Shown one piece after another: positions 1-38,130 of a DNA stretch of 38,198 nt. Below the pieces are notes generated by a model that was not told the DNA's origin, ran no database searches, and saw only the letters and a list, made by a program, of their open reading frames with translations. The translations under genes and the position numbers were made by a program. Source of the DNA: Candidatus Kerfeldbacteria bacterium RIFOXYC2_FULL_38_9 (GTDB lineage Bacteria > Patescibacteriota > Patescibacteriia > UBA9570 > XYC2-FULL-38-9). Positions within the stretch are counted from its first letter, which is position 1; every line of letters starts with the position of its first letter. Where the stretch lies: assembly GCA_001818355.1 (NCBI GenBank), contig MHKJ01000034.1, positions 12,723 through 50,920 on the forward strand. The letters run 5' to 3'.

Positions 1-10
1 TAAGTGTTTG

Positions 11-47
11 CTAACGCAACGGTAATGGCGCGAACGATGTGCGAAAT
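11..47 (+). repeat. 37-nt intergenic element, copy A (CTAACGCAAC-N9-GCGAAC-GATGTGCGAAAT)
   Basis: Same length and architecture as 28951..28987 and 30962..30998. Shares CGCAAC...GCGAACG with 29702..29738. Follows a TAA at 1..3 and ends 12 nt before ATG 60. Confidence 0.6.
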
Positions 48-59
48 AGTAAACTTTTT

Positions 60-566
60 ATGACAATGAACAAAGTTTTAATCATAGGGATAAGTGGAAC
101 AGGTAAAACAGGGTTGGCAAAAAAAATATCCGATTTTTTAAAAATTCCAGTCACCCATTATGACGAGTTTGTTTGGGATGAAAACTGGAATGAAGTGGAT
201 GAAAAAATAGTAGAGCAAAAATTGGAGGAGGTTATCAAAAAGGATGGGTGGATTATTGAGGGTTTTATACACCCAGCCGCTAAGAGCAAATTAAAAAATG
301 CTGACACTGTAATTTATTTAGATTATTCTGGCTGGCAAGCATTTTTGGGCGGTTTAAACAGGTGGTGGATATACCGAGGTAAAACAAGGCCGGAGATGGC
401 AGCTGGGTGTATTGAAGATTTTAACTGGAATTATTTAAAAGTCATGTGGAAACGTGCAGAAAGACAGGAAATTGAGGAAACAATCAAAGGATTTGAAAAT
501 AAAATGATTCGCCTAAAAACAAGAAGCGAGACGGATAATTTTCTTGCCAAACTGCTTGCGAAGTAA
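60..566 (+). CDS. Small P-loop NTPase, adenylate-kinase / topology-modulation (FlaR)-like
   Basis: ORF 39..566. Walker A GISGTGKTG follows directly after MNKVLIIG, so ATG 60 or 66 is a more likely start than 39. About 170 aa, typical of stand-alone AAA/adenylate-kinase-like proteins. Confidence 0.6.
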   Translation: MTMNKVLIIGISGTGKTGLAKKISDFLKIPVTHYDEFVWDENWNEVDEKIVEQKLEEVIKKDGWIIEGFIHPAAKSKLKNADTVIYLDYSGWQAFLGGLNRWWIYRGKTRPEMAAGCIEDFNWNYLKVMWKRAERQEIEETIKGFENKMIRLKTRSETDNFLAKLLAK

Positions 567-581
567 AAAGTTTACTACACC

Positions 582-718
582 GCACAACAGCCGATATGCG
601 GTTCAAGAAAAAGAATGATAAATATTTTCAGCGGATACTTTTTTCTCTCACCCATATTTCGCACAAATTTAATTTTTAAGGAGTGTGCGAAACATCGCAT
701 ATCGGCGTTAGACGAAAT
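582..718 (+). repeat. 137-nt imperfect palindrome, long form of the intergenic element family
   Basis: GCACAAC-A-GCCGATATGCG (582..600) pairs with CGCATATCGGC-GTTAGAC (696..713); the 11-bp arms are perfect. Nested hairpin TTTCGCACA (657..665) / TGTGCGAAA (684..692). Ends GTTAGACGAAAT like the other copies. Confidence 0.7.
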
Positions 719-838
719 AAATTTTTTATCTTAGTGGTAATTTTAGGGTTTTGGTGATATAAATAAAAACAGAAAATTTTATTTTTAATTTATTTAAAGA
801 GGGGTAACAAGGAATTTTTTCTTCTTTTATATTTTTCA

Positions 839-1747
839 ATGGAGGAAGAAAAAAGTTATTTAATTTTAAAAGCTATGAAAAATATTGGAGTTTTAATTTA
901 TACATACAACAGAGTTGATGATGCTAGAATAAATTTAGACATCATTAGGAATGTTTGGGAAAAATCCAAGCATTTTAAAAATGTAAAAATAGTTCACTCC
1001 TTCAATGGTGAAAAAAGCTGGTATGCGAAGAAGGAATTAGAAAATGATTTAGTGGTTTTGAAAAATAGCTGGCATTTTCAAGGGGCATCTGATTTAATTG
1101 ACGCTGGAATCAAGACATTTCAAAAAAAGTATACAAATATTGATTATGTTATTGTATTGGCTTCTGATGCTTGGCTGATAAAGCCCGAGTATGTGAAAAA
1201 CCTGATTAGCAGAATGAAAAATGATGAATTATATTTAGCAACTTGTTCATGGGGACTTCCCGACAGAGACAATGTCGCTGATGTTGGCGTGGCTGTTGAT
1301 TTATTTATAATCGATTTGAAGTGGGCAACAAAAAATAAACTGTTTCCAATTGCATATGGAAAATTTCAGAAAAAATACAAAGATTTGTTTGCCTATCAAA
1401 AAGCTGACAATATTATGCTGGAAAAATTATTTTTGGCACGATATTTGGAAGCTATTAGCAGATCCGAAAAAATTGATGGCATTGCAAGAAAAATTGCGAT
1501 TGAAAAAACCTTATTACTAAAGGACAGAGAGCCTGTGCATAGTAGTATTGATAAAAAAGGAAATTGGGTTAGAAAAATGTATTGGCCTAAAATGGGACTG
1601 CTAACACATCACGAACCAGAACCAAAGAGAAATATTTTAAAAAAAAAGAAAATCAGCAATGGTAAAAATGTTGAACTTTTACTAAAAAGTAAAGATTTGT
1701 CATATTTTAACAATGGTATTTCTAAAATGAAACATAATTGCAATTAA
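839..1747 (+). CDS. Hypothetical protein, possible GT-A fold (GT2-like) glycosyltransferase
   Basis: 302-aa ORF. N-terminal IGVLIYTYNR resembles the GT2 IPtYNr motif, and DYVIVLASDAW resembles the DxD-region strand. No stronger match recognised. Confidence 0.45.
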   Translation: MEEEKSYLILKAMKNIGVLIYTYNRVDDARINLDIIRNVWEKSKHFKNVKIVHSFNGEKSWYAKKELENDLVVLKNSWHFQGASDLIDAGIKTFQKKYTNIDYVIVLASDAWLIKPEYVKNLISRMKNDELYLATCSWGLPDRDNVADVGVAVDLFIIDLKWATKNKLFPIAYGKFQKKYKDLFAYQKADNIMLEKLFLARYLEAISRSEKIDGIARKIAIEKTLLLKDREPVHSSIDKKGNWVRKMYWPKMGLLTHHEPEPKRNILKKKKISNGKNVELLLKSKDLSYFNNGISKMKHNCN

Positions 1748-1969
1748 GGAGTTTTGGGTTCGGGCATTCACCCCTTAATCCCTTGGTTTACTCTTTTTTT
1801 GATTTTTTTGGCAATTTATTGCTCTGTTTGTTGATTTTGCAGTTCATCAAATGTATCAGCTTCAATCCAAAATCCCCGACTGATATCATGATGTCTATAG
1901 CGCGGGTTGACATAATTCCTTAATATGGTATACTATAAATACTTCATTAAACCATATTAAGTATTTTCC

Positions 1970-2319
1970 ATGACCTCTCTATCACTTATTATAAAAGCTC
2001 GTTTGGAAGAAAAACTGACTAAACTCAACAAACTCCGTCCCCTGCCAAAATCGACAATGCTGAAACTTCGAGAAAAATTCCAGATTGAAATGACTTACAA
2101 TTTATTGCTCAATCCGTAGAGCGCTCGCTTGATATCTACCTCAAAACTTTAACTCCCGCCACCACTAAACAGGAGAAATTTTGACACTCACGGACATAGC
2201 TAAAAACACTCATTTCTCTGCCAAATATTTAAACTTACTTGCAAGGCAGGAACTGGCTAACATCGAAAGAAGCCGTTGAGCGATACTTGAAAAATAGGAC
2301 AAGACAACGAAAAGTGTAA
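1970..2319 (+). pseudogene. Decayed Fic-family N-terminal fragment plus frameshifted HTH fragment
   Basis: 1970..2119 encodes a 49-aa ORF, MTSLSLIIKARLEEKLTKLNKLRPLPKSTMLKLREKFQIEMTYNLLLNP*. This resembles the Fic N-terminus up to the (W/M)TYNSNAIEG region and then stops. 2181..2319 encodes LTDIAKNTHFSAKYLNLLARQELANIE, followed after a +1 frame shift by SKEAVERYLKNRTRQRKV*, an HTH-like tail. Confidence 0.45.
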
Positions 2320-2354
2320 CAAAATTCATTTTATAATCAATACACGATAACTAT

Positions 2355-2867
2355 ATGAGTGATTTTACTCCGGAACAATTAAACCTTATCTCTAACATTG
2401 AACATGCTTTTGAAAATGTCACAAGGGAAGATGGTAAAACACTACATGAAGCCTTCGCTGAAGATCAGTATCTTTCAAAAGAAGAATGTCTTGAAGCGAG
2501 AAAATTAGATACCGATACCCGCTGGCAAGACGTGTCAGATGAAATGATAAATGAAATACCGAGCCCATTTTCTTTTTTAGATGGCAAAGGAAGACGTTAT
2601 TACCTGCCGGCCTTCATGCGGTTTGGCGTAAAATATCCTAACCACTATGCTACCAGCATGCTGATTTATATCCTTTATCCATTTACCAGCACACAAGGTG
2701 AAAAACAAAATTGGACAGTTGAATCACTAGTGCAAGATTTTAAATTTAATAAACAGCAATGTCGAGTTATTTTTGATTTTCTAAAAAACATATGTGAAGA
2801 TGAATTTTTGTTAAAAAAACCTGAATGGGTTAAGGCGTTGCAAGAGTGGCAACGATTATCAGAATAA
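2355..2867 (+). CDS. Hypothetical protein, DUF6714-like
   Basis: 170-aa ORF. TLHEAFAEDQYLSKEECLEARKLDTDTRWQDV...FSFLDGKGRRYYLPAFM resembles the DUF6714 signature as I recall it (LxEAxxxDxY...ARxxDxxxxWxDI...FLDxxGFRFYLPAYM). Family assignment is from memory only. Confidence 0.5.
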   Translation: MSDFTPEQLNLISNIEHAFENVTREDGKTLHEAFAEDQYLSKEECLEARKLDTDTRWQDVSDEMINEIPSPFSFLDGKGRRYYLPAFMRFGVKYPNHYATSMLIYILYPFTSTQGEKQNWTVESLVQDFKFNKQQCRVIFDFLKNICEDEFLLKKPEWVKALQEWQRLSE

Positions 2868-2968
2868 AAACAGAAAATACATCGTACAGCAAAAAAATAT
2901 TTATTCTATAAACCTCTCACTCCAAAACTAGACTAACTCCAATTAAAAAATAATTGAAATCAAAAACT

Positions 2969-3889
2969 ATGTCAGAAAGACCATTTTTAGATAAACTGTA
3001 TACTTCTCAAGAAAAAAAATTACCAGAAAATGTTATAAGAATTAAAAAACCGGAGGGAATATATCGTTTGGTGTTGTCTGACAGCCATGCAACCCAAGAA
3101 AGCGTGTCCACAGTCGATGGTTCAGATGGTGTGATCCTTGAAGGTGATGTAATTATATTTGGTGATTTTAATTATAGTGATCCTAAGATTGCCAAAAGAG
3201 CTATTGAGACAGCGGCCAGAAGAGATGAACAGTACAAAGATATTATTCTCTGGTGTCAACAAAATGATAAACCAATCTATTATACTGATCTACAATACAT
3301 CAAACTTATTCCTTTTATCCAAAAAATATTACGGGGCTTGGAATTTGGTGTTGCGGCTAATTTGCTGATGCGTTTTGGGGTTAATATTACAAAAAAGCCG
3401 ATCAACAGAAGAGATTTTCTTAAATTGACTGCCGGCGCTTTTTTGGCAACCCCAACCCTGGAGGATTTTCTTTTTATTCTTGATAAAGACAACAACCACC
3501 ATACCAGCGCTGTTTCTGCAACCAGGGATAGGCTTGGAGAGGTAAATGAAAAAATGCATCCGGAAACCCATGCTATTATCAGAACATTGCGTAATTGCCT
3601 AATGGCACAAAAATGGAAAACCATTATGCAAATTAGCGCTACATCCCAAACAGGACACAAACCCGAAATCGCACAAGTAGTCGGAGCGATGCATACCGGC
3701 ATTGAGGACGCTCTTAATGAAGACGACAGTGAACGAATTGCTACCATAAAACAACTCCTGTCTGTGCCGGGGCTTGAAGAAGATAGAAAAAAAATAGCAA
3801 GTATTGCCCGCGTTCTTTATTCGAAAAAAACGCAAACTTGGGTGGTAACAGAATATCAAGACCCACTACTTAAGCCGTTGGAAAAATAA
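2969..3889 (+). CDS. Hypothetical protein with an internal twin-arginine-like motif
   Basis: ORF 2954..3889 opens at TTG; ATG 2969 (MSERPF) is preferred. No family recognised. NRRDFLKLTAGAFLATP lies at residues about 151-167. Confidence 0.55.
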   Translation: MSERPFLDKLYTSQEKKLPENVIRIKKPEGIYRLVLSDSHATQESVSTVDGSDGVILEGDVIIFGDFNYSDPKIAKRAIETAARRDEQYKDIILWCQQNDKPIYYTDLQYIKLIPFIQKILRGLEFGVAANLLMRFGVNITKKPINRRDFLKLTAGAFLATPTLEDFLFILDKDNNHHTSAVSATRDRLGEVNEKMHPETHAIIRTLRNCLMAQKWKTIMQISATSQTGHKPEIAQVVGAMHTGIEDALNEDDSERIATIKQLLSVPGLEEDRKKIASIARVLYSKKTQTWVVTEYQDPLLKPLEK

Positions 3890-3914
3890 AATTTGATATG
3901 CTTTTGCTGAACTT

Positions 3915-3931
3915 GACCTTAGGTCTTTTTT
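3915..3931 (+). terminator. Weak intrinsic terminator-like hairpin
   Basis: GACCT-T-AGGTC followed by TTTTTT, 26 nt after the stop at 3889. The stem is only 5 bp. Confidence 0.35.
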
Positions 3932-3952
3932 GAGTTACACTATAAAAGCAAA

Positions 3953-3971
3953 CTAACGAACTAGACGAAAT
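3953..3971 (+). repeat. Short copy of the intergenic element (CTAACGAACTAGACGAAAT)
   Basis: Shares CTAACG with copies A and C, and TAGACGAAAT with 709..718. Lies at the junction between the accessory cluster and rny. Confidence 0.5.
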
Positions 3972-4119
3972 CTTAATAAAGCAAAGGTTTGTGTAATTAT
4001 TTGTTGAAATTTTCCTAAAACATGATAAAAAAACACCTTGACGGTAAAGTTTGGAACGATAAGTAATTGGTTTTTTATTACACAAAAACTTTAGTGTTTC
4101 GTCTCTAACACTAATAAAT

Positions 4120-7951: not shown

Positions 7952-8029
7952 GCGCCCGTAGCTCAACTGGATAGAGCGTCTGGCTTCGGACCAGAAGGTT
8001 TGGGGGTTCAAGTCCCTTCGGGCGCACCA
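7952..8029 (+). tRNA. tRNA-Arg (anticodon TCG), CCA encoded
   Basis: Acceptor GCGCCCG/CGGGCGC, D arm GCTC-AACTGGATA-GAGC, anticodon arm TCTGG-CTTCGGA-CCAGA, T arm GGGGG-TTCAAGT-CCCTT, then ACCA. The variable region appears 1 nt longer than usual. Confidence 0.85.
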
Positions 8030-8033
8030 ATAA

Positions 8034-8105
8034 GGGATCATAGCTCAATGGTAGAGCAGCTGCCTCTTAAGCAGTTGGTTGAAGGTTCAAATCCTTCTGG
8101 TCCCA
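8034..8105 (+). tRNA. tRNA-Lys (anticodon CTT), CCA not encoded
   Basis: Acceptor GGGATCA/TGGTCCC, D arm GCTC-AATGGTA-GAGC, anticodon arm GCTGC-CTCTTAA-GCAGT, T arm GAAGG-TTCAAAT-CCTTC, discriminator A. Confidence 0.88.
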
Positions 8106-8138
8106 CTCTTTCCTTGTGCATAACTTTCTTGTTTTTTC

Positions 8139-28773: not shown

Positions 28774-28810
28774 ACCATAAGACGCTCTTGCCAACCAATA
28801 TTGAGTTCGC

Positions 28811-28913
28811 CTAACTACCTATATACCAGTCAACCCCACCACTGTGGATAATGGAGTTGATTTTGTTCTTGATAAGGCTTGTTGTTTTTCCAAACAGCCC
28901 TGTTGATTTTTAG
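28811..28913 (+). repeat. ~103-bp direct repeat, copy 1 (contains a terminator-like hairpin)
   Basis: Hand alignment to 30826..30926 gives 9 mismatches plus a 2-nt indel; the last 53 nt differ at 1 position. Preceded by and overlapping GCCTAAC (28809..28815). Hairpin AAGGCT..AGCCC(T) with a T-rich tail at about 28874..28910. Confidence 0.85.
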
Positions 28914-28950
28914 TTTTTTGTTAGCTAAAATTTAAGGTATGATACAGGAG

Positions 28951-28987
28951 TTAACGTAACACTAGTGGTGCGGGCGTTATCGGAAAT
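28951..28987 (+). repeat. 37-nt intergenic element, copy B (TTAACGTAACACTAGTGGTGCGGGCGTTATCGGAAAT)
   Basis: Same 37-nt architecture as copies A and C. The ends TTAACG / CGTTAT are near reverse complements. Ends 26 nt before ATG 29014. Confidence 0.6.
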
Positions 28988-29013
28988 TTCATTAATAATT
29001 TACTTTTATCAAT

Positions 29014-29646
29014 ATGGTTTCAGAAAATTCATTATCACCCTTGTATCAATTTATTCAAGAAGTACAAAAATTAAAGTATATTGATAGAGCGGTTTTGGCA
29101 ACTGAGAGCAGGAAAGAAAGTTCTGCAGAACATTGTTGGTCAGTTGGAGTTATTGTATGGTTTTTGTCAGATGCTTGGAAAAAAGAATTTAATACTGACA
29201 TTGATGTAAACAAAATCATTAAGATGGCTTTAATGCATGACATTATCGAAGTTCGGGTTGGTGATGTTTCGGTTTGGGACAAAAAAAAGAGATTACAGAT
29301 TGAACAGAAGGAGAGGGACGGCTTTATGTCTATCATAAGTACTCTGCCAACTTCTTTACAGACAGAATTGGCATCATTATGGAATGAATTACAAGAAGGA
29401 CAAACTCTGGAAAGTAAAATGGTGAGTGGTGCTGATAGGTTAAGCGCTGCTATCCAACGTTTGATTACTAAACAAGGCTGGGTCACAGAAGGTCATAATG
29501 AAAAGGATTTGGATGGTATTCAATTACCAAAAATAAACTTTAGCAAAGTTCTCCTTTCTTTCTATAATGAAATAAAACAAGAATCGTTTAATAACGGTTT
29601 ATTAGAAAAATCCTCATCTGATGAAATTTCCGATAACAGCAAATAA
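29014..29646 (+). CDS. HD-domain phosphohydrolase, YfbR-like 5'-deoxynucleotidase family
   Basis: LKYIDRAV...ESSAEHCWSVGVIV...MALMHDIIEVRVGDV...GADRLSAAIQ fits the H...HD...D metal-ligand pattern and spacing of the YfbR/HD_3 group. Confidence 0.7.
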   Translation: MVSENSLSPLYQFIQEVQKLKYIDRAVLATESRKESSAEHCWSVGVIVWFLSDAWKKEFNTDIDVNKIIKMALMHDIIEVRVGDVSVWDKKKRLQIEQKERDGFMSIISTLPTSLQTELASLWNELQEGQTLESKMVSGADRLSAAIQRLITKQGWVTEGHNEKDLDGIQLPKINFSKVLLSFYNEIKQESFNNGLLEKSSSDEISDNSK

Positions 29647-29664
29647 ACGCAATTGCTTCACATC

Positions 29665-29738
29665 GGTTGTGATGTTATGCTAACTTTATCACAACCTTGT
29701 TTCGCAACTGGTGTTTACCTGCGAACGTTAGGTGAAAT
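29665..29738 (+). repeat. Intergenic element, copy D, with an extra perfect hairpin
   Basis: GGTTGTGAT (29665..29673) / ATCACAACC (29688..29696) with CTAAC in the loop (29680..29684). Then CGCAAC-N12-GCGAAC-GTTAGGTGAAAT (29703..29738). TTCGCA/TGCGAA inner stem. Ends 16 nt before ATG 29755. Confidence 0.65.
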
Positions 29739-29754
29739 TTCTAAAAAATTATTT

Positions 29755-30369
29755 ATGAACAAGCTGGAAAAATTTATTATCAATCCAACAAATGAATTTC
29801 ATATTCTTAGGCACTTTAGATATGTAGATGATTACTACAAAAAAACTCTTATTGGACAACTATATTGGTTTTATGACTACGGTCAAAAGAAGTTTGTTTC
29901 TTCGAAAATTTCGCAAATTGACATTGAAAATGCTCTAAAAACAATCGGCACTAAATTTGAAAAAAATATTATTGGTATTGAATCCCCAAAAAAACCACTA
30001 GAAATAATCAAGAATAGATTTCAAGAATTACTATCGAACAACAAAATTTATTGGATTGATAATCTCGAATACAAAACTATTGCATTTACATTTGATTACC
30101 AATTTTTTGTGGGCCAAATGAATTGTTTAAATAAGGATAGTATTCTTGAAAGAGACAAAAACCGAATCAAGCCGGTTTTGAAAAGTAAATGTGCAGGAGA
30201 AAATGCAGTTATTGTAAATACTATTTCCGACATAGAATTATCTTCTACAAAATCAATCCATGTAGAAATCGTTGAAACAAAACAACTACCGTTTTACACA
30301 ATAACCGCATTTCCAGATTGTTCACTTTCAGATGACATTCCAGATGAAAATATTGTTTTTGTAGTATAA
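29755..30369 (+). CDS. Hypothetical 204-aa protein (orphan)
   Basis: ORF 29653..30369 opens at TTG inside the palindromic element, so ATG 29755 (MNKLEKF) is preferred. No family recognised. Confidence 0.5.
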   Translation: MNKLEKFIINPTNEFHILRHFRYVDDYYKKTLIGQLYWFYDYGQKKFVSSKISQIDIENALKTIGTKFEKNIIGIESPKKPLEIIKNRFQELLSNNKIYWIDNLEYKTIAFTFDYQFFVGQMNCLNKDSILERDKNRIKPVLKSKCAGENAVIVNTISDIELSSTKSIHVEIVETKQLPFYTITAFPDCSLSDDIPDENIVFVV

Positions 30370-30413
30370 TTTTTTAGAAACACCACATACACATCTTCAC
30401 ATTAAGTCAAAAT

Positions 30414-30425
30414 GTTAGGTGTAAT
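30414..30425 (+). repeat. Right-end motif of the intergenic element (GTTAGGTGTAAT)
   Basis: 11/12 identical to GTTAGGTGAAAT at 29727..29738. Ends 14 nt before ATG 30440. Confidence 0.5.
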
Positions 30426-30439
30426 TTTTTCCTTTAACC

Positions 30440-30829
30440 ATGAAAGATATAATAATTAAAAAATCAGAAAAGCATTGCCGCGGCGTTTTTGTTGCTAGAA
30501 ATTTTAAAAAAGGCGAAATAGTTGTTCCTTGGGTAGTCAAAAAAATTCTTGATAAGCAAGAATTATCATCATTAACACAGCAAGAAAAAGAATATGTTTC
30601 AAAAAGAGAGGACGGCAAATATGTTTTGTTTGCAGAGCCTGCCTGTTGCGTTAATCATTCTTGCGATCCAAACACAAAATCAGAAAACAATGCCAATGTA
30701 GCAATACGAGATATTAAAAAAGGTGAGGAAATCACCACGGATTATGAATTAGAAGGAGCGCTAAACAAATTTAAGTGTTCTTGCGGTAGCAAAAATTGCA
30801 GAGGCTCAATCGGAGAAAATTACATCTAA
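30440..30829 (+). CDS. Minimal SET-domain protein (putative lysine methyltransferase) with post-SET Cys cluster
   Basis: GRGVFA-like CRGVFVARNFKKGEIV, NHSCDPN, GEEITTDY, and C-terminal FKCSCGSKNCRG (CxCx4C post-SET). 129 aa. Confidence 0.8.
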   Translation: MKDIIIKKSEKHCRGVFVARNFKKGEIVVPWVVKKILDKQELSSLTQQEKEYVSKREDGKYVLFAEPACCVNHSCDPNTKSENNANVAIRDIKKGEEITTDYELEGALNKFKCSCGSKNCRGSIGENYI

Positions 30830-30926
30830 CTATCCATATACCAATCAACCTCACCACCGCGGATAAGGGTTAATTTTGTTCTTGATAAGGCTTGTTGTTT
30901 TTCCAAACAGCCTTGTTGATTTTTAG
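30826..30926 (+). repeat. ~103-bp direct repeat, copy 2 (contains a terminator-like hairpin)
   Basis: Starts within the stop codon region of the SET gene (ATCTAAC 30824..30830). Hairpin AAGGCT(T)GTT / AAC-AGCCTT at 30887..30914, followed by GTTGATTTTT. Confidence 0.85.
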
Positions 30927-30961
30927 CTTGGTTGTGGTATTTTTAAGATACTTTATTTATT

Positions 30962-30998
30962 CTAACGCAATACTGGCGCTAGAAACGTTGGGTAAAAT
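30962..30998 (+). repeat. 37-nt intergenic element, copy C (CTAACGCAATACTGGCGCTAGAAACGTTGGGTAAAAT)
   Basis: Ends CTAACG / CGTTGG (5 of 6 complementary), with a central near-palindrome CTGGCGCTAG. Ends 24 nt before ATG 31023. Confidence 0.6.
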
Positions 30999-31022: not shown

Positions 31023-31394
31023 ATGCTGGTTGTTAAAACAAAGATAAAAGAAATAAACGGAAAGGGGATCGGCTTAATTGCTGATCAAGAAATTAAAAAA
31101 GGTCAACCAACCTGGGTTTTTAATTCCGTTATTGATATAAAAGTTAACAAAAAAGACATTCCTAAATTTGCAAAAGAATTTTTTGAAACGTATGCTGTTG
31201 ATATAGGAAAAGACTATGTTTATTTAAATATAGACAATGCCAGGTTTAAAAATCATTCCAACAATCCAAACACAAAAAGCCTCGGGTTATACAAAGACAA
31301 CATTGCTACAAGAGACATTCATGTCGGAGAAGAAATTACCATTGATTATAACGAAATTGATGTAAACGGAGTTGATTTTAATACTGAAAATTAA
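31023..31394 (+). CDS. Minimal SET-domain protein, second divergent copy (no post-SET cysteines)
   Basis: GKGIGLIADQEIKKGQ, RFKNHSNNPN (NHS.xPN), GEEITIDY. 123 aa. Confidence 0.7.
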   Translation: MLVVKTKIKEINGKGIGLIADQEIKKGQPTWVFNSVIDIKVNKKDIPKFAKEFFETYAVDIGKDYVYLNIDNARFKNHSNNPNTKSLGLYKDNIATRDIHVGEEITIDYNEIDVNGVDFNTEN

Positions 31395-31402
31395 GTTATT
31401 CA

Positions 31403-31435
31403 GCCTAACTTGACGAAGCAAAGGAAAGGTGAGAT
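31403..31435 (+). repeat. Degenerate copy of the intergenic element (GCCTAAC-N18-GGTGAGAT)
   Basis: GCCTAAC as at 28809. GGTGAGAT resembles GGTGAAAT of copy D. Ends 13 nt before ATG 31449. Confidence 0.4.
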
Positions 31436-37938: not shown

Positions 37939-38130
37939 CGGTGGTTCTTTGATAATTTTTTATGGTTCGTTTAATCCTCAGCTGTTTTTTGTACGTGCTC
38001 GTAGCCGTTCCAAGCCCCCGGTCACGGCACTGCGCGCGTTCGAAAAACAGCTTCGGATTAGCTTACCGCTCGTGTTCCATTTTCGGAACCGAGCTGTTCT
38101 CAACGCGCTAACCCATAAGGAGGGTTTTCT

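Follow-up and report, generated by a model that had tools for sequence, protein, structure and literature searches.

The window analysed here is a stretch of 38,198 nucleotides from Candidatus Kerfeldbacteria bacterium RIFOXYC2_FULL_38_9, a member of the Patescibacteria or Candidate Phyla Radiation (CPR). Its first 3,971 nt hold a row of small, co-oriented accessory open reading frames (ORFs) interspersed with short repeated elements, which recur in a second accessory cluster at 28.8-31.4 kb. We followed these elements, picked out in an earlier note on the sequence, through 58 kb of DNA composed of the window, the locus L081, which extends it 9941 nt leftward (window coordinate = L081 coordinate - 9941), and L086, the 10 kb on its right.

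Results

Two accessory clusters and their elements

The left cluster starts at L081 8673 (window -1268), directly after a core SAM_HAT_C gene that is itself preceded by bactofilin, infB, rbfA, DHH protein and clpP genes. A 101-aa ORF and an 84-aa SWEET/PQ-loop ORF come next, followed by the P-loop kinase gene at window 60 and the features listed in Table 1. On the right, the cluster ends at 3971 or, tentatively the more probable limit, at 4097-4109, where an R''-like box, TTTCGTCTCTAAC, precedes the rny start codon by 10 nt. This box appears complementary to the R' arm GTTAGACGAAA save for a 2-nt insertion. An inverted repeat seen by eye in 3962-4109 was non-significant in the gapped inverted-repeat test of the region. 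The gene assignments of the earlier note fared unevenly. Pfam supported the DUF6714-like gene and, by a weak AAA_18 match, the P-loop kinase; the 'HTH' and 'GT-like' labels correspond to sub-threshold hints only (AraC HTH, E 0.1; NTP_transf_3, E 0.012), and 'Fic debris' found no support.

The elements themselves were read from the sequence where they had been described. CTAACGCAACGGTAATGGCGCGAACGATGTGCGAAAT lies at 11-47, 12 nt before the ATG at 60; 582-718 is a long imperfect palindrome ending in GTTAGACGAAAT; and 3953-3971 reads CTAACGAACTAGACGAAAT, of which the 10-mer TAGACGAAAT is common to 709-718, so that the R' arms of sites S3 and S4 share it. Relatives are present at 28952-28987, 29700-29738, 30414-30425 and 30962-30998. 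The 'weaker TGAAAT' at 2955, on the other hand, has no features of the family. The 37-nt element at 11-47 is real, but it is the 3' half of a larger hairpin site. Each element has its partner downstream of the next ORF, where it had been missed. The elements are the conserved 3' halves or the whole bodies of attC-like sites with the layout R''(..YAAC)-A-L''...L'-GAAC-R'(GTTRRRY)GAAAT. ORF-flanking inverted repeats, a shared exact 18-mer and full-length homologues elsewhere support the earlier view that they form one homologous family, and across the 58 kb they are restricted to the two accessory clusters, again as had been proposed.

Table 1. Sites, cassette genes, cassette arms and neighbouring boxes of the two arrays (window coordinates unless L081 is named).
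Feature	Position	Strand	Details
attI-like site	L081 8729-8758		57 nt after SAM_HAT_C stop codon, 1.2 kb left of the window
101-aa ORF cassette arms			23 nt, 83%
S1	L081 9198-9384		ATCTAAC / A / GCGCGTA-TGCG ... CGCATTACGCGC / GAAC / GTTAGGTGAAAT; cores ATCTAAC / GTTAGGT
SWEET cassette arms			upstream GTTAGGTGAAATAAATTTTTAACTCTT, downstream AAGAGTTAAAAATTTACTTCCCCTAAC; 27 nt, 93%
S2	L081 9672 to window 47	+	starts 269 nt left of the window; 3' end = 1-47
S2, conserved 3' half	11-47		CTAACGCAAC, L' remnant, GAAC spacer, R' arm GATGTGCGAAAT (36-47)
P-loop kinase cassette arms	38-60 / 564-586		23 nt, 87%
Kinase cassette ORF	60-566	+	168 aa, P-loop AAA_18-like, weak Pfam match
Kinase cassette R'' arm	564-589	+	AAAGTTTACTACACCGCACAAC; inverted-repeat partner of 38-60
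S3, complete	578-718	+	R'' GCACAAC / A / L'' GCCGATATGCG ... L' CGCATATCGGC / R' GTTAGAC GAAAT; found by the strict hairpin finder
302-aa ORF	839-1747	+	in stretch 719-3945
Possible relic boxes beside DUF6714	2314-2325; 2879-2890		GTGTAACAAAAT; ACATCGTACAGC
DUF6714 ORF	2355-2867	+	Pfam E 1e-25
306-aa orphan ORF	2969-3889	+
S4, remnant	3946-3971	+	CTAAC 3953-3957, GAAC 3958-3961, R' arm without GT TAGACGAAAT 3962-3971; L boxes and loop deleted
Terminal ORF-free stretch (tentative)	3972-4109	+	ends in R''-like box TTTCGTCTCTAAC 4097-4109
Promoter-like sequence (tentative)	4038-4067		TTGACG-N16-TAAGTAAT, before rny
S5, start of right array	28809-28987	+	R'' GCCTAAC 28809-28815, module A/B hairpin, conserved 3' half, R' arm GTTATCGGAAAT 28976-28987
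HD cassette arms	28976-28992 / 29621-29637		17 nt, 100%
HD_3 / YfbR-like phosphohydrolase cassette ORF	29014-29646	+	own-flank score 17
S6	29621-29738	+	R'' CGATAAC / A / long imperfect L stem / GAAC / R' GTTAGGTGAAAT; R' core GTTAGGT
204-aa ORF cassette arms	29729-29752 / 30366-30389		24 nt, 83%
204-aa cassette ORF, unknown function	29755-30369	+	own-flank score 15
S7, degenerate short site	30384-30425	+	R' arm GTTAGGTGTAAT 30414-30425
SET-domain protein 1 cassette ORF	30440-30829	+	stop codon within R'' box ATCTAAC 30824-30830; own-flank score 14
S8, composite like S5	30824-30998	+	R' arm GTTGGGTAAAAT 30987-30998
SET-domain protein 2 cassette ORF	31023-31394	+	cassette span 31023-31409
Terminal R'' box GCCTAAC	31403-31409	+	abuts core promoter TTGACG

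Each cassette gene is framed by its own inverted repeat

Accessory ORFs of the clusters each carry an inverted repeat of their own, whose outer ends are the cores GTTRRRY(GAAAT) upstream and RYYYAAC downstream. When the two flanks of a gene were scored against each other, six accessory genes reached own-flank scores of 13-22 (14.5 for the kinase), compared with a null of mean 8.2, standard deviation 1.5 and 99th percentile 12.5 that was formed by all cross pairs of flanks; the core genes scored at most 11 in 36 cases out of 36. The flank repeats were independently confirmed by an inverted-repeat search (arms in Table 1). The inner parts of the arms differ between cassettes, which indicates that pairing is kept rather than sequence.

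Own-flank scores across 719-3945 were 6.5-9.5, not above background. This stretch, with its ORF fragments and a strong internal promoter, would represent decayed cassettes. The promoter in question, at 1907-1934, is the best sigma70-like promoter of the cluster (TTGACA-16-TATACT with an upstream TG, 11/12 matches) and precedes the 49-aa ORF (1970-2119) behind the 'Fic debris' label, for which no Pfam family was found.

Architecture of the sites

The conserved 3' half of the sites consists of CGCAAY, 3 nt, L', GAAC and the R' arm. Its form in S2, CGCAAY-N3-L'-GAAC-GTTRRRYGAAAT, recurs in sites on other contigs, and the exact 18-mer GCGAACGTTAGGTGAAAT is present both at L081 9366, upstream of the SWEET gene, and at window 29721. 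Short-motif counts gave less: with up to 2 mismatches, CGTTAGGTGAAAT was found 4 times against 1.4 expected, a marginal excess (6 of 100 shuffles reach 4), and with up to 3 mismatches 23 times against 14 expected. All four 2-mismatch copies lie on the + (coding) strand in accessory spacers.

The spacers between R and L boxes are constantly asymmetric, 1 nt (A) on one side and 3-4 nt (GAAC/AAAC/GAC) on the other, and not the canonical 5 and 5-6 nt with extrahelical G and T. The attC cores RYYYAAC and GTTRRRY were found in S1, S3 and S6. As single-stranded DNA, S3 is predicted to fold with -21.8 kcal/mol for the top strand (z -3.5) and -24.2 kcal/mol for the bottom strand (z -4.5), and a site in L109 is homologous to it from end to end. 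S6 gave z values of -3.35 and -3.66 and matched a covariance model, built from trimmed external sites, at E 0.028. Site lengths range from ~57-67 nt (in L116) through 107 (S6), 127-141 (S3) and 177 nt (S1) to 175-340 nt where sites are composite or have an ORF in the loop; the attC criterion for integrons and for clusters of attC sites lacking integrase (CALINs; IntegronFinder definitions, PMC4889954, PMC9024848) is 57-141 nt.

Composite sites S2, S5 and S8 contain a 110-280-nt module A/B hairpin after R''. S5 and S8 are 95% identical over a 61-nt core and 90% over a 93-nt block, and a third spacer shares 24 nt. Module A is a repeat of ~110 nt directly after R'' (window 28809-28916 and 30824-30929, L081 9677-9750) whose window copies are 90-95% identical; it has a terminator-like hairpin, GGCTTGTTG-TTTTTCC-AAACAGCC, and then a T-rich tail. 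Many short contigs of the population end inside module A, which probably causes assembly breaks. The sole difference between the window and L081 over their 10.5-kb overlap, G or T at window 10, falls just 5' of the CTAACGCAAC block of S2.

The same family on other contigs

Scanning metagenome contigs of the Joint Genome Institute (JGI) with the 18-mer yielded 21 loci, ~12 of them with the whole architecture. L094 and L097 carry 5 and 6 co-oriented sites, between which lie genes for GNATs, an AAA_18 kinase, NUDIX and HIT proteins, a TPP enzyme and a Pycsar-like cyclase/effector pair. This pair, a Pycsar-like cyclase with a PycTM effector (an anti-phage system), sits together in one cassette at L097 754-2105. 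A loose hairpin finder performed at the level of shuffles, so stricter versions and a negative control were used. The strict finder gave 25 sites from outside the window, and only 3 weak matches in 1.37 Mb of unrelated loci.

None of the 25 external sites departs from AAC or GTT. Compensatory changes were seen in 10 of 11 L-box pairs; 96% of L-box cells are paired, versus 16-49% with the partner slid by 1-3 columns, and the covariation score is 0.518 versus 0.149 for shuffles and 0.02-0.16 for slid partners. In 12 of 15 neighbouring pairs, the R' of one site agrees with the R'' of the next over GTT and a further 5-7 variable bases, a chaining that is the signature of classical integron cassettes. 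Units without an ORF carry the same arms (L110, L103). Kinase homologues 70-83% identical to that of the window stand in different accessory gene rows elsewhere. The one in L127 has its own matching pair, GTTATAG / CTACAAC, pointing to past mobility of the kinase cassette. We found no cassettes common to the window and the fetched loci.

The architecture ..AAC / A/AA / L'' ... L' / GAAC / GTTRRRY..AAT is the same in L108 (63% GC) and L099 (46% GC), and its presence in these high-GC loci indicates that the site type is not confined to CPR. The window itself is AT-rich, with a GC of 32-44%. In L116 (7177-7523) and L143 (~1360-2000), attC-like sites were seen with a 300-600-nt L''/L' loop holding a 78-85-aa ORF, either a nested cassette or a loop-borne gene.

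A recombinase and an attI-like site are linked to arrays in relatives

A tblastn search with an IntI1 query gave a strong match only in L103, where the N-terminus of a tyrosine recombinase, whose homologues are short CPR recombinases, is divergent from and ~66 nt away from a GTTAGAC site, with family sites following. In L116, part of a contig of 822,872 bp, a full 273-aa recombinase gene adjoins rbfA-infB-bactofilin, the block that precedes the left array here; its infB product is 43% identical to that of the window organism. The L116 recombinase gene is divergent from 7 or more family sites whose R'/R'' chaining is perfect. L121, L120 (Dojkabacteria) and L143 (Kerfeldbacteria) have the same layout, and L143 had been picked solely by protein similarity. 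The earlier note had argued that the elements mark a special class of variable region, and this holds: the sites delimit gene cassettes, and the syntenic place after infB-rbfA in the distant relative L116 has a recombinase and wholly different cassettes.

An anchored regular-expression scan located an attI-like motif, TTCGCATAwwAACnA-GTTnnnn-GAAAT, 60-170 nt upstream of the recombinase on the opposite strand in L103, L115, L116, L117/118, L121 and L143. Family attC sites lie on the attI-like side in L103, L116, L121 and L143; L120, the seventh recombinase locus, has a family attC site on that side and no clear attI-like motif. The ~273-aa recombinase is truncated or frameshifted in two of the six motif-bearing loci. 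Like classical attI, the recombinase-proximal sites carry a GTT box; unlike it, the attI-like site is hairpin-like and then GTT. The only other copy of the motif in 3.8 Mb, apart from assemblies of the same stretch, is that at L081 8729-8758, at the start of the left array. Leftward extension by 10 kb, as the earlier note had suggested, thus reached the array start and an attI-like site, and no integrase; the note had placed any integrase outside the window. Such a site without a recombinase implies that the array lost, or never had, an adjacent recombinase gene.

By NCBIfam the recombinase scores 226 bits with XerA_Arch ('tyrosine recombinase/integron integrase', cut-off 220), 219 with the integron integrase model TIGR02249 (cut-off 265) and ~188 with XerC/XerD; against structures it scores 156 bits with Pyrococcus abyssi XerA, 154 with Vibrio VchIntIA and 90 with XerD. 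In the alignment to VchIntIA (2A3V), query residues 16-191 pair with chain residues 14-193 and 202-273 with 246-317, so that IntIA residues 194-245, the IntI-specific insertion, are skipped, ~52 residues having 10 counterparts. At E <= 1e-30 the family has no fewer than 6805 clusters, which go by the names XerD or 'integron integrase'; the 'Cand' group of Xer-like recombinases (PMC8138268) is probably its counterpart.

A role of the attI-like site as a chromosomal dif was considered and found no support. GC skew at the site in this genome shows no terminus-like switch, and the L117 gene lies 4 kb from dnaA, which together argue against a plain dif role. The recombinase of L117/L118 (9762-10576, Parcubacteria GW2011_GWA2_31_28), ~4 kb from dnaA-dnaN, is split into 80-aa and 191-aa ORFs, either through a frameshift or through an error of assembly; the locus has the attI-like site, and family attC sites were not found there. 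In L121, a strong switch of GC skew at ~9900, from -0.12 to +0.28, coincides exactly with the recombinase/attI-like site and with a change of gene orientation; it may reflect an origin-like pattern or no more than a coding-strand effect.

Other features of the window

Tandem genes for tRNA-Arg(TCG) and tRNA-Lys(CTT) lie at 7952-8106, between an APH-like gene and a ferredoxin gene. Near the right end of the window, 37972-38060 forms a 37-nt imperfect inverted repeat, 76% complementary with a 15-nt loop, that has no relation to the cassette sites. Searches for exact protein matches recovered the window in an 88.8-kb contig and in numerous others, apparently from aquifer metagenome samples. Its RNase Y is at most 60% identical to those of GTDB species representatives, with the best matches in metagenome-assembled genomes (MAGs) of Patescibacteria/CPR. 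Synteny around RNase Y in GTDB genomes gave family sites in none of 14 Patescibacteria loci; with a top identity of 60% and 14 loci without sites, there is no close relative for comparison.

Discussion

A probable integron-type cassette array

Very probably, an integron-type array of gene cassettes that starts left of the window has its inner and distal part in window 1-3971, and a second, smaller array lies at 28.8-31.4 kb. This reading is based on what was observed of site architecture, of covariation and of the arm pairing specific to each cassette, and on other genomes in which recombinase, attI-like site and array are linked. Each cassette would consist of one small co-oriented ORF with an R' arm (GTTRRRY plus GAAAT) upstream and an R'' arm (...RYYYAAC) downstream, and consecutive cassettes would be joined by an attC-like hairpin body comprising an L''/L' stem, a variable loop and an unpaired spacer of 1 nt (A) against 4 nt (GAAC). 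In an excised single-stranded circle the R' and R'' arms are predicted to pair, and together with the L boxes they may fold, by analogy with integrons, to a hairpin that mimics a two-arm core site. The ~273-aa recombinase would then excise and insert cassettes with folded single-stranded DNA as its substrate, by exchange of a single strand with either a second attC or the attI-like site. It would bind through the R' arm TTAGGTGAAAT, 11-12 nt long and conserved, the A/GAAC bulge could serve as the polarity mark, and GAGTTCGCCTAACTTGACG exemplifies a predicted empty site.

Several observations weigh against this interpretation. Gene and Pfam lists and the IntI1 tblastn gave no tyrosine recombinase in the window or in the 10 kb on its left (L081) and right (L086). 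The GT-like, DUF6714 and 306-aa genes have no significant repeats of their own in the uniform flank test. Only S1, S3 and S6 are complete; S2, S5 and S8 are composites without an L'' partner, and S4 and S7 are stumps. The covariance model detects the window sites weakly (E 3e-5 to 3) because it cannot span long loops, the 3' halves being recognized and the long-loop sites not as wholes; it was not used as main evidence. The attC sites were in part selected by the required complementarity of their L stems. Both arrays end in a bare R'' box at core DNA (31403-31409; 4097-4109), where the canonical G|TT crossover predicts otherwise; these boxes, together with the GCCTAAC (28809-28815) at the start of the right array, would fit a crossover on the AAC side. 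The linked recombinase lacks the IntI insertion, which has been stated to be essential for integron function (PMC8138268) and is held essential for attC recombination, and the very large size of its family in CPR means that it could be a housekeeping Xer. Finally, strain variants retrieved through exact CTP_transf, RNase Y, kinase and TrmB proteins have the same gene order in all contigs; with no cassette variation among more than 10 assemblies of the population, mobility is not demonstrated here.

Degenerate sites, the want of a nearby recombinase and the identical cassette order make the arrays look sedentary and decaying. Most likely, the left array keeps its accessory genes as a store that no longer changes and is decaying, which makes it the equivalent of a CALIN. 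At least two attC sites within 4 kb and no integrase nearby were indeed found on the left (S1-S3, plus S4) and on the right (S5-S8).

Alternative explanations

Because all strong copies are on the coding strand and precede an ATG by 12-120 nt, the elements could be promoters or operators of a regulon, that is, a shared alternative-sigma or repressor site before accessory genes. Conservation is stronger for the GAAAT/TAAAAT tail of the upstream arm than for its complement on the downstream one, which does hint at a second role, e.g. as a -10-like box. Yet none of the predictions of sigma70 promoter and terminator scans coincides with the elements, and no -35/-10 pair was listed that overlaps 11-47, 700-718, 3953-3971, 28952-28987, 29700-29738 or 30962-30998, while core genes have a clear TTGACA-N17-TATAAT; sigma54 and ECF-type (extracytoplasmic function) promoters were dropped by eye for their unsuitable spacings. 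With a variable spacing between conserved blocks (15 or 18 nt), and with downstream inverted arms, covarying L stems and recombinase/attI-like linkage left unexplained, a regulatory origin is improbable. Structured RNA, in the form of leaders or of 5'/3' untranslated regions whose pairing stabilizes or regulates each mRNA, would also be expected to show compensatory hairpins and 5'/3' complementarity around ORFs. We regard it as highly unlikely: the folds are equally good on both strands, ORF-free units carry the same arms, and R'/R'' chains in arrays divergent from a tyrosine recombinase are the signature of DNA recombination. Rfam 15, searched over both clusters at the gathering threshold and at E up to 10, returned nothing relevant; only two tRNAs reached gathering, and no family had E <0.2 over the elements.

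The inverted repeats around the ORFs, conserved in their outer 12 nt, also call to mind miniature inverted-repeat (MITE-like) non-autonomous transposons with a transposase elsewhere, or Xer/dif-type modules like Acinetobacter pdif. The XerA-type score of the linked recombinase speaks for these, as does the resemblance of the R' arm, at 9 of 11 positions, to the XerD arm of Escherichia coli dif, which we take to be TTATGTTAAAT. The inner arm parts, though, are specific to the cassette and not to the family, conserved hairpins whose stems covary make up the DNA between units, and neither target-site duplications nor a transposase were found. Nor do the sites alternate in orientation as in pdif, and the attI-like site lies at no terminus-like skew switch, with the L117 copy near dnaA. 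Mobile units of these kinds are accordingly improbable. Mere chance resemblance of AT-rich spacers would suit the short-motif counts, only ~3-fold above expectation; exact 18-mers, full-length homologues, covariation, own-flank scores and the negative control effectively refute it, leaving it with hardly any probability.

Relation to known systems

Integrons are known from bacteria, mostly proteobacteria, and lately from archaea, and their integrases are defined by the domain that reads extrahelical bases of folded attC sites. As in sedentary chromosomal integrons and CALINs such as the Vibrio super-integron, the arrays described here consist of small, co-oriented accessory ORFs with imperfect palindromes between them that carry RYYYAAC ... 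GTTRRRY cores. Their L boxes pair, next to an asymmetric spacer that is predicted to be unpaired, and the start of a cassette complements its own R''. Arrays hold recurring site types (S2, S5, S8) like Vibrio cholerae repeats, the relatives' recombinase is divergent and beside an attI-like site, and cassette functions are typical (GNAT, NUDIX, kinases, defence genes). Differences from integrons are the CPR/Patescibacteria host, a linked ~273-aa recombinase that has no ~50-aa IntI-specific insertion, a longer R arm (9-12 bp plus the conserved GAAAT), a spacer of 1 versus 4 nt instead of ~5 versus 5-6, several sites of 170-340 nt, some with an ORF inside the loop, an attI-like site made of a hairpin and then GTT, and arrays that end in a bare R'' box. 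Archaeal integrons, recovered from MAGs with attC arrays and diverse cassettes, extended the class beyond classical Bacteria (Ghaly et al., 2022, PMC9668308). They were found with canonical IntI/attC models, whereas the recombinase here fails the TIGR02249 cut-off and passes that of XerA_Arch.

Xer systems with a single recombinase include XerA/dif in archaea and XerS/difSL, with the site beside the gene, and CTX phage is integrated at dif as a folded single-stranded DNA hairpin. Shared with them are a recombinase of Xer size and type, a cognate site beside its gene and an R' arm like the 11-bp arm of the XerD type; as in CTX-type use of Xer, a folded hairpin would mimic a two-arm core site. 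Unlike in Xer systems, the sites delimit cassette arrays, their location is not terminus-like, and the similarity of the recombinase to VchIntIA equals that to XerA and far exceeds that to XerD. Acinetobacter pdif modules are accessory genes bracketed by inverted Xer-type sites and shuffled as modules (PMC7399989, PMC9771954). Accessory genes are likewise bracketed by inverted sites here, but pdif sites are 28-bp, double-stranded, alternating and on plasmids, in contrast to the 60-340-nt chromosomal hairpins in one orientation described above.

Implications

Within the literature covered by our search, no description of integrons in Patescibacteria/CPR was found. We see about an even chance that these bacteria own a widespread integron class of their own, with a ~270-aa 'Cand'/XerA-like recombinase without the IntI domain as integrase, a hairpin-type attI, and attC sites with an 11-12-bp Xer-like R arm. 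Such a class could be either an ancestral integron form, in which an Xer-like enzyme already acted on folded single-stranded cassettes, or an independent invention. What would be new is the cassette logic of integrons in ultra-small, host-dependent CPR, tied to a minimal Xer-like recombinase; if true, the IntI insertion would not be required for cassette recombination, and a candidate path for the origin of integrons from Xer recombination would be at hand. Integron finders keyed to the IntI domain would at best call such arrays integrase-less clusters. Repeats of this family would also explain assembly breaks and variable islands in CPR MAGs, and the sites in high-GC loci raise the question of cassette exchange across phyla. 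For the organisms themselves, the arrays would, if the reading is true, provide a route of gene exchange and accessory storage, for kinases, NUDIX, SET, HD, SWEET and defence genes, in genomes thought to be streamlined.

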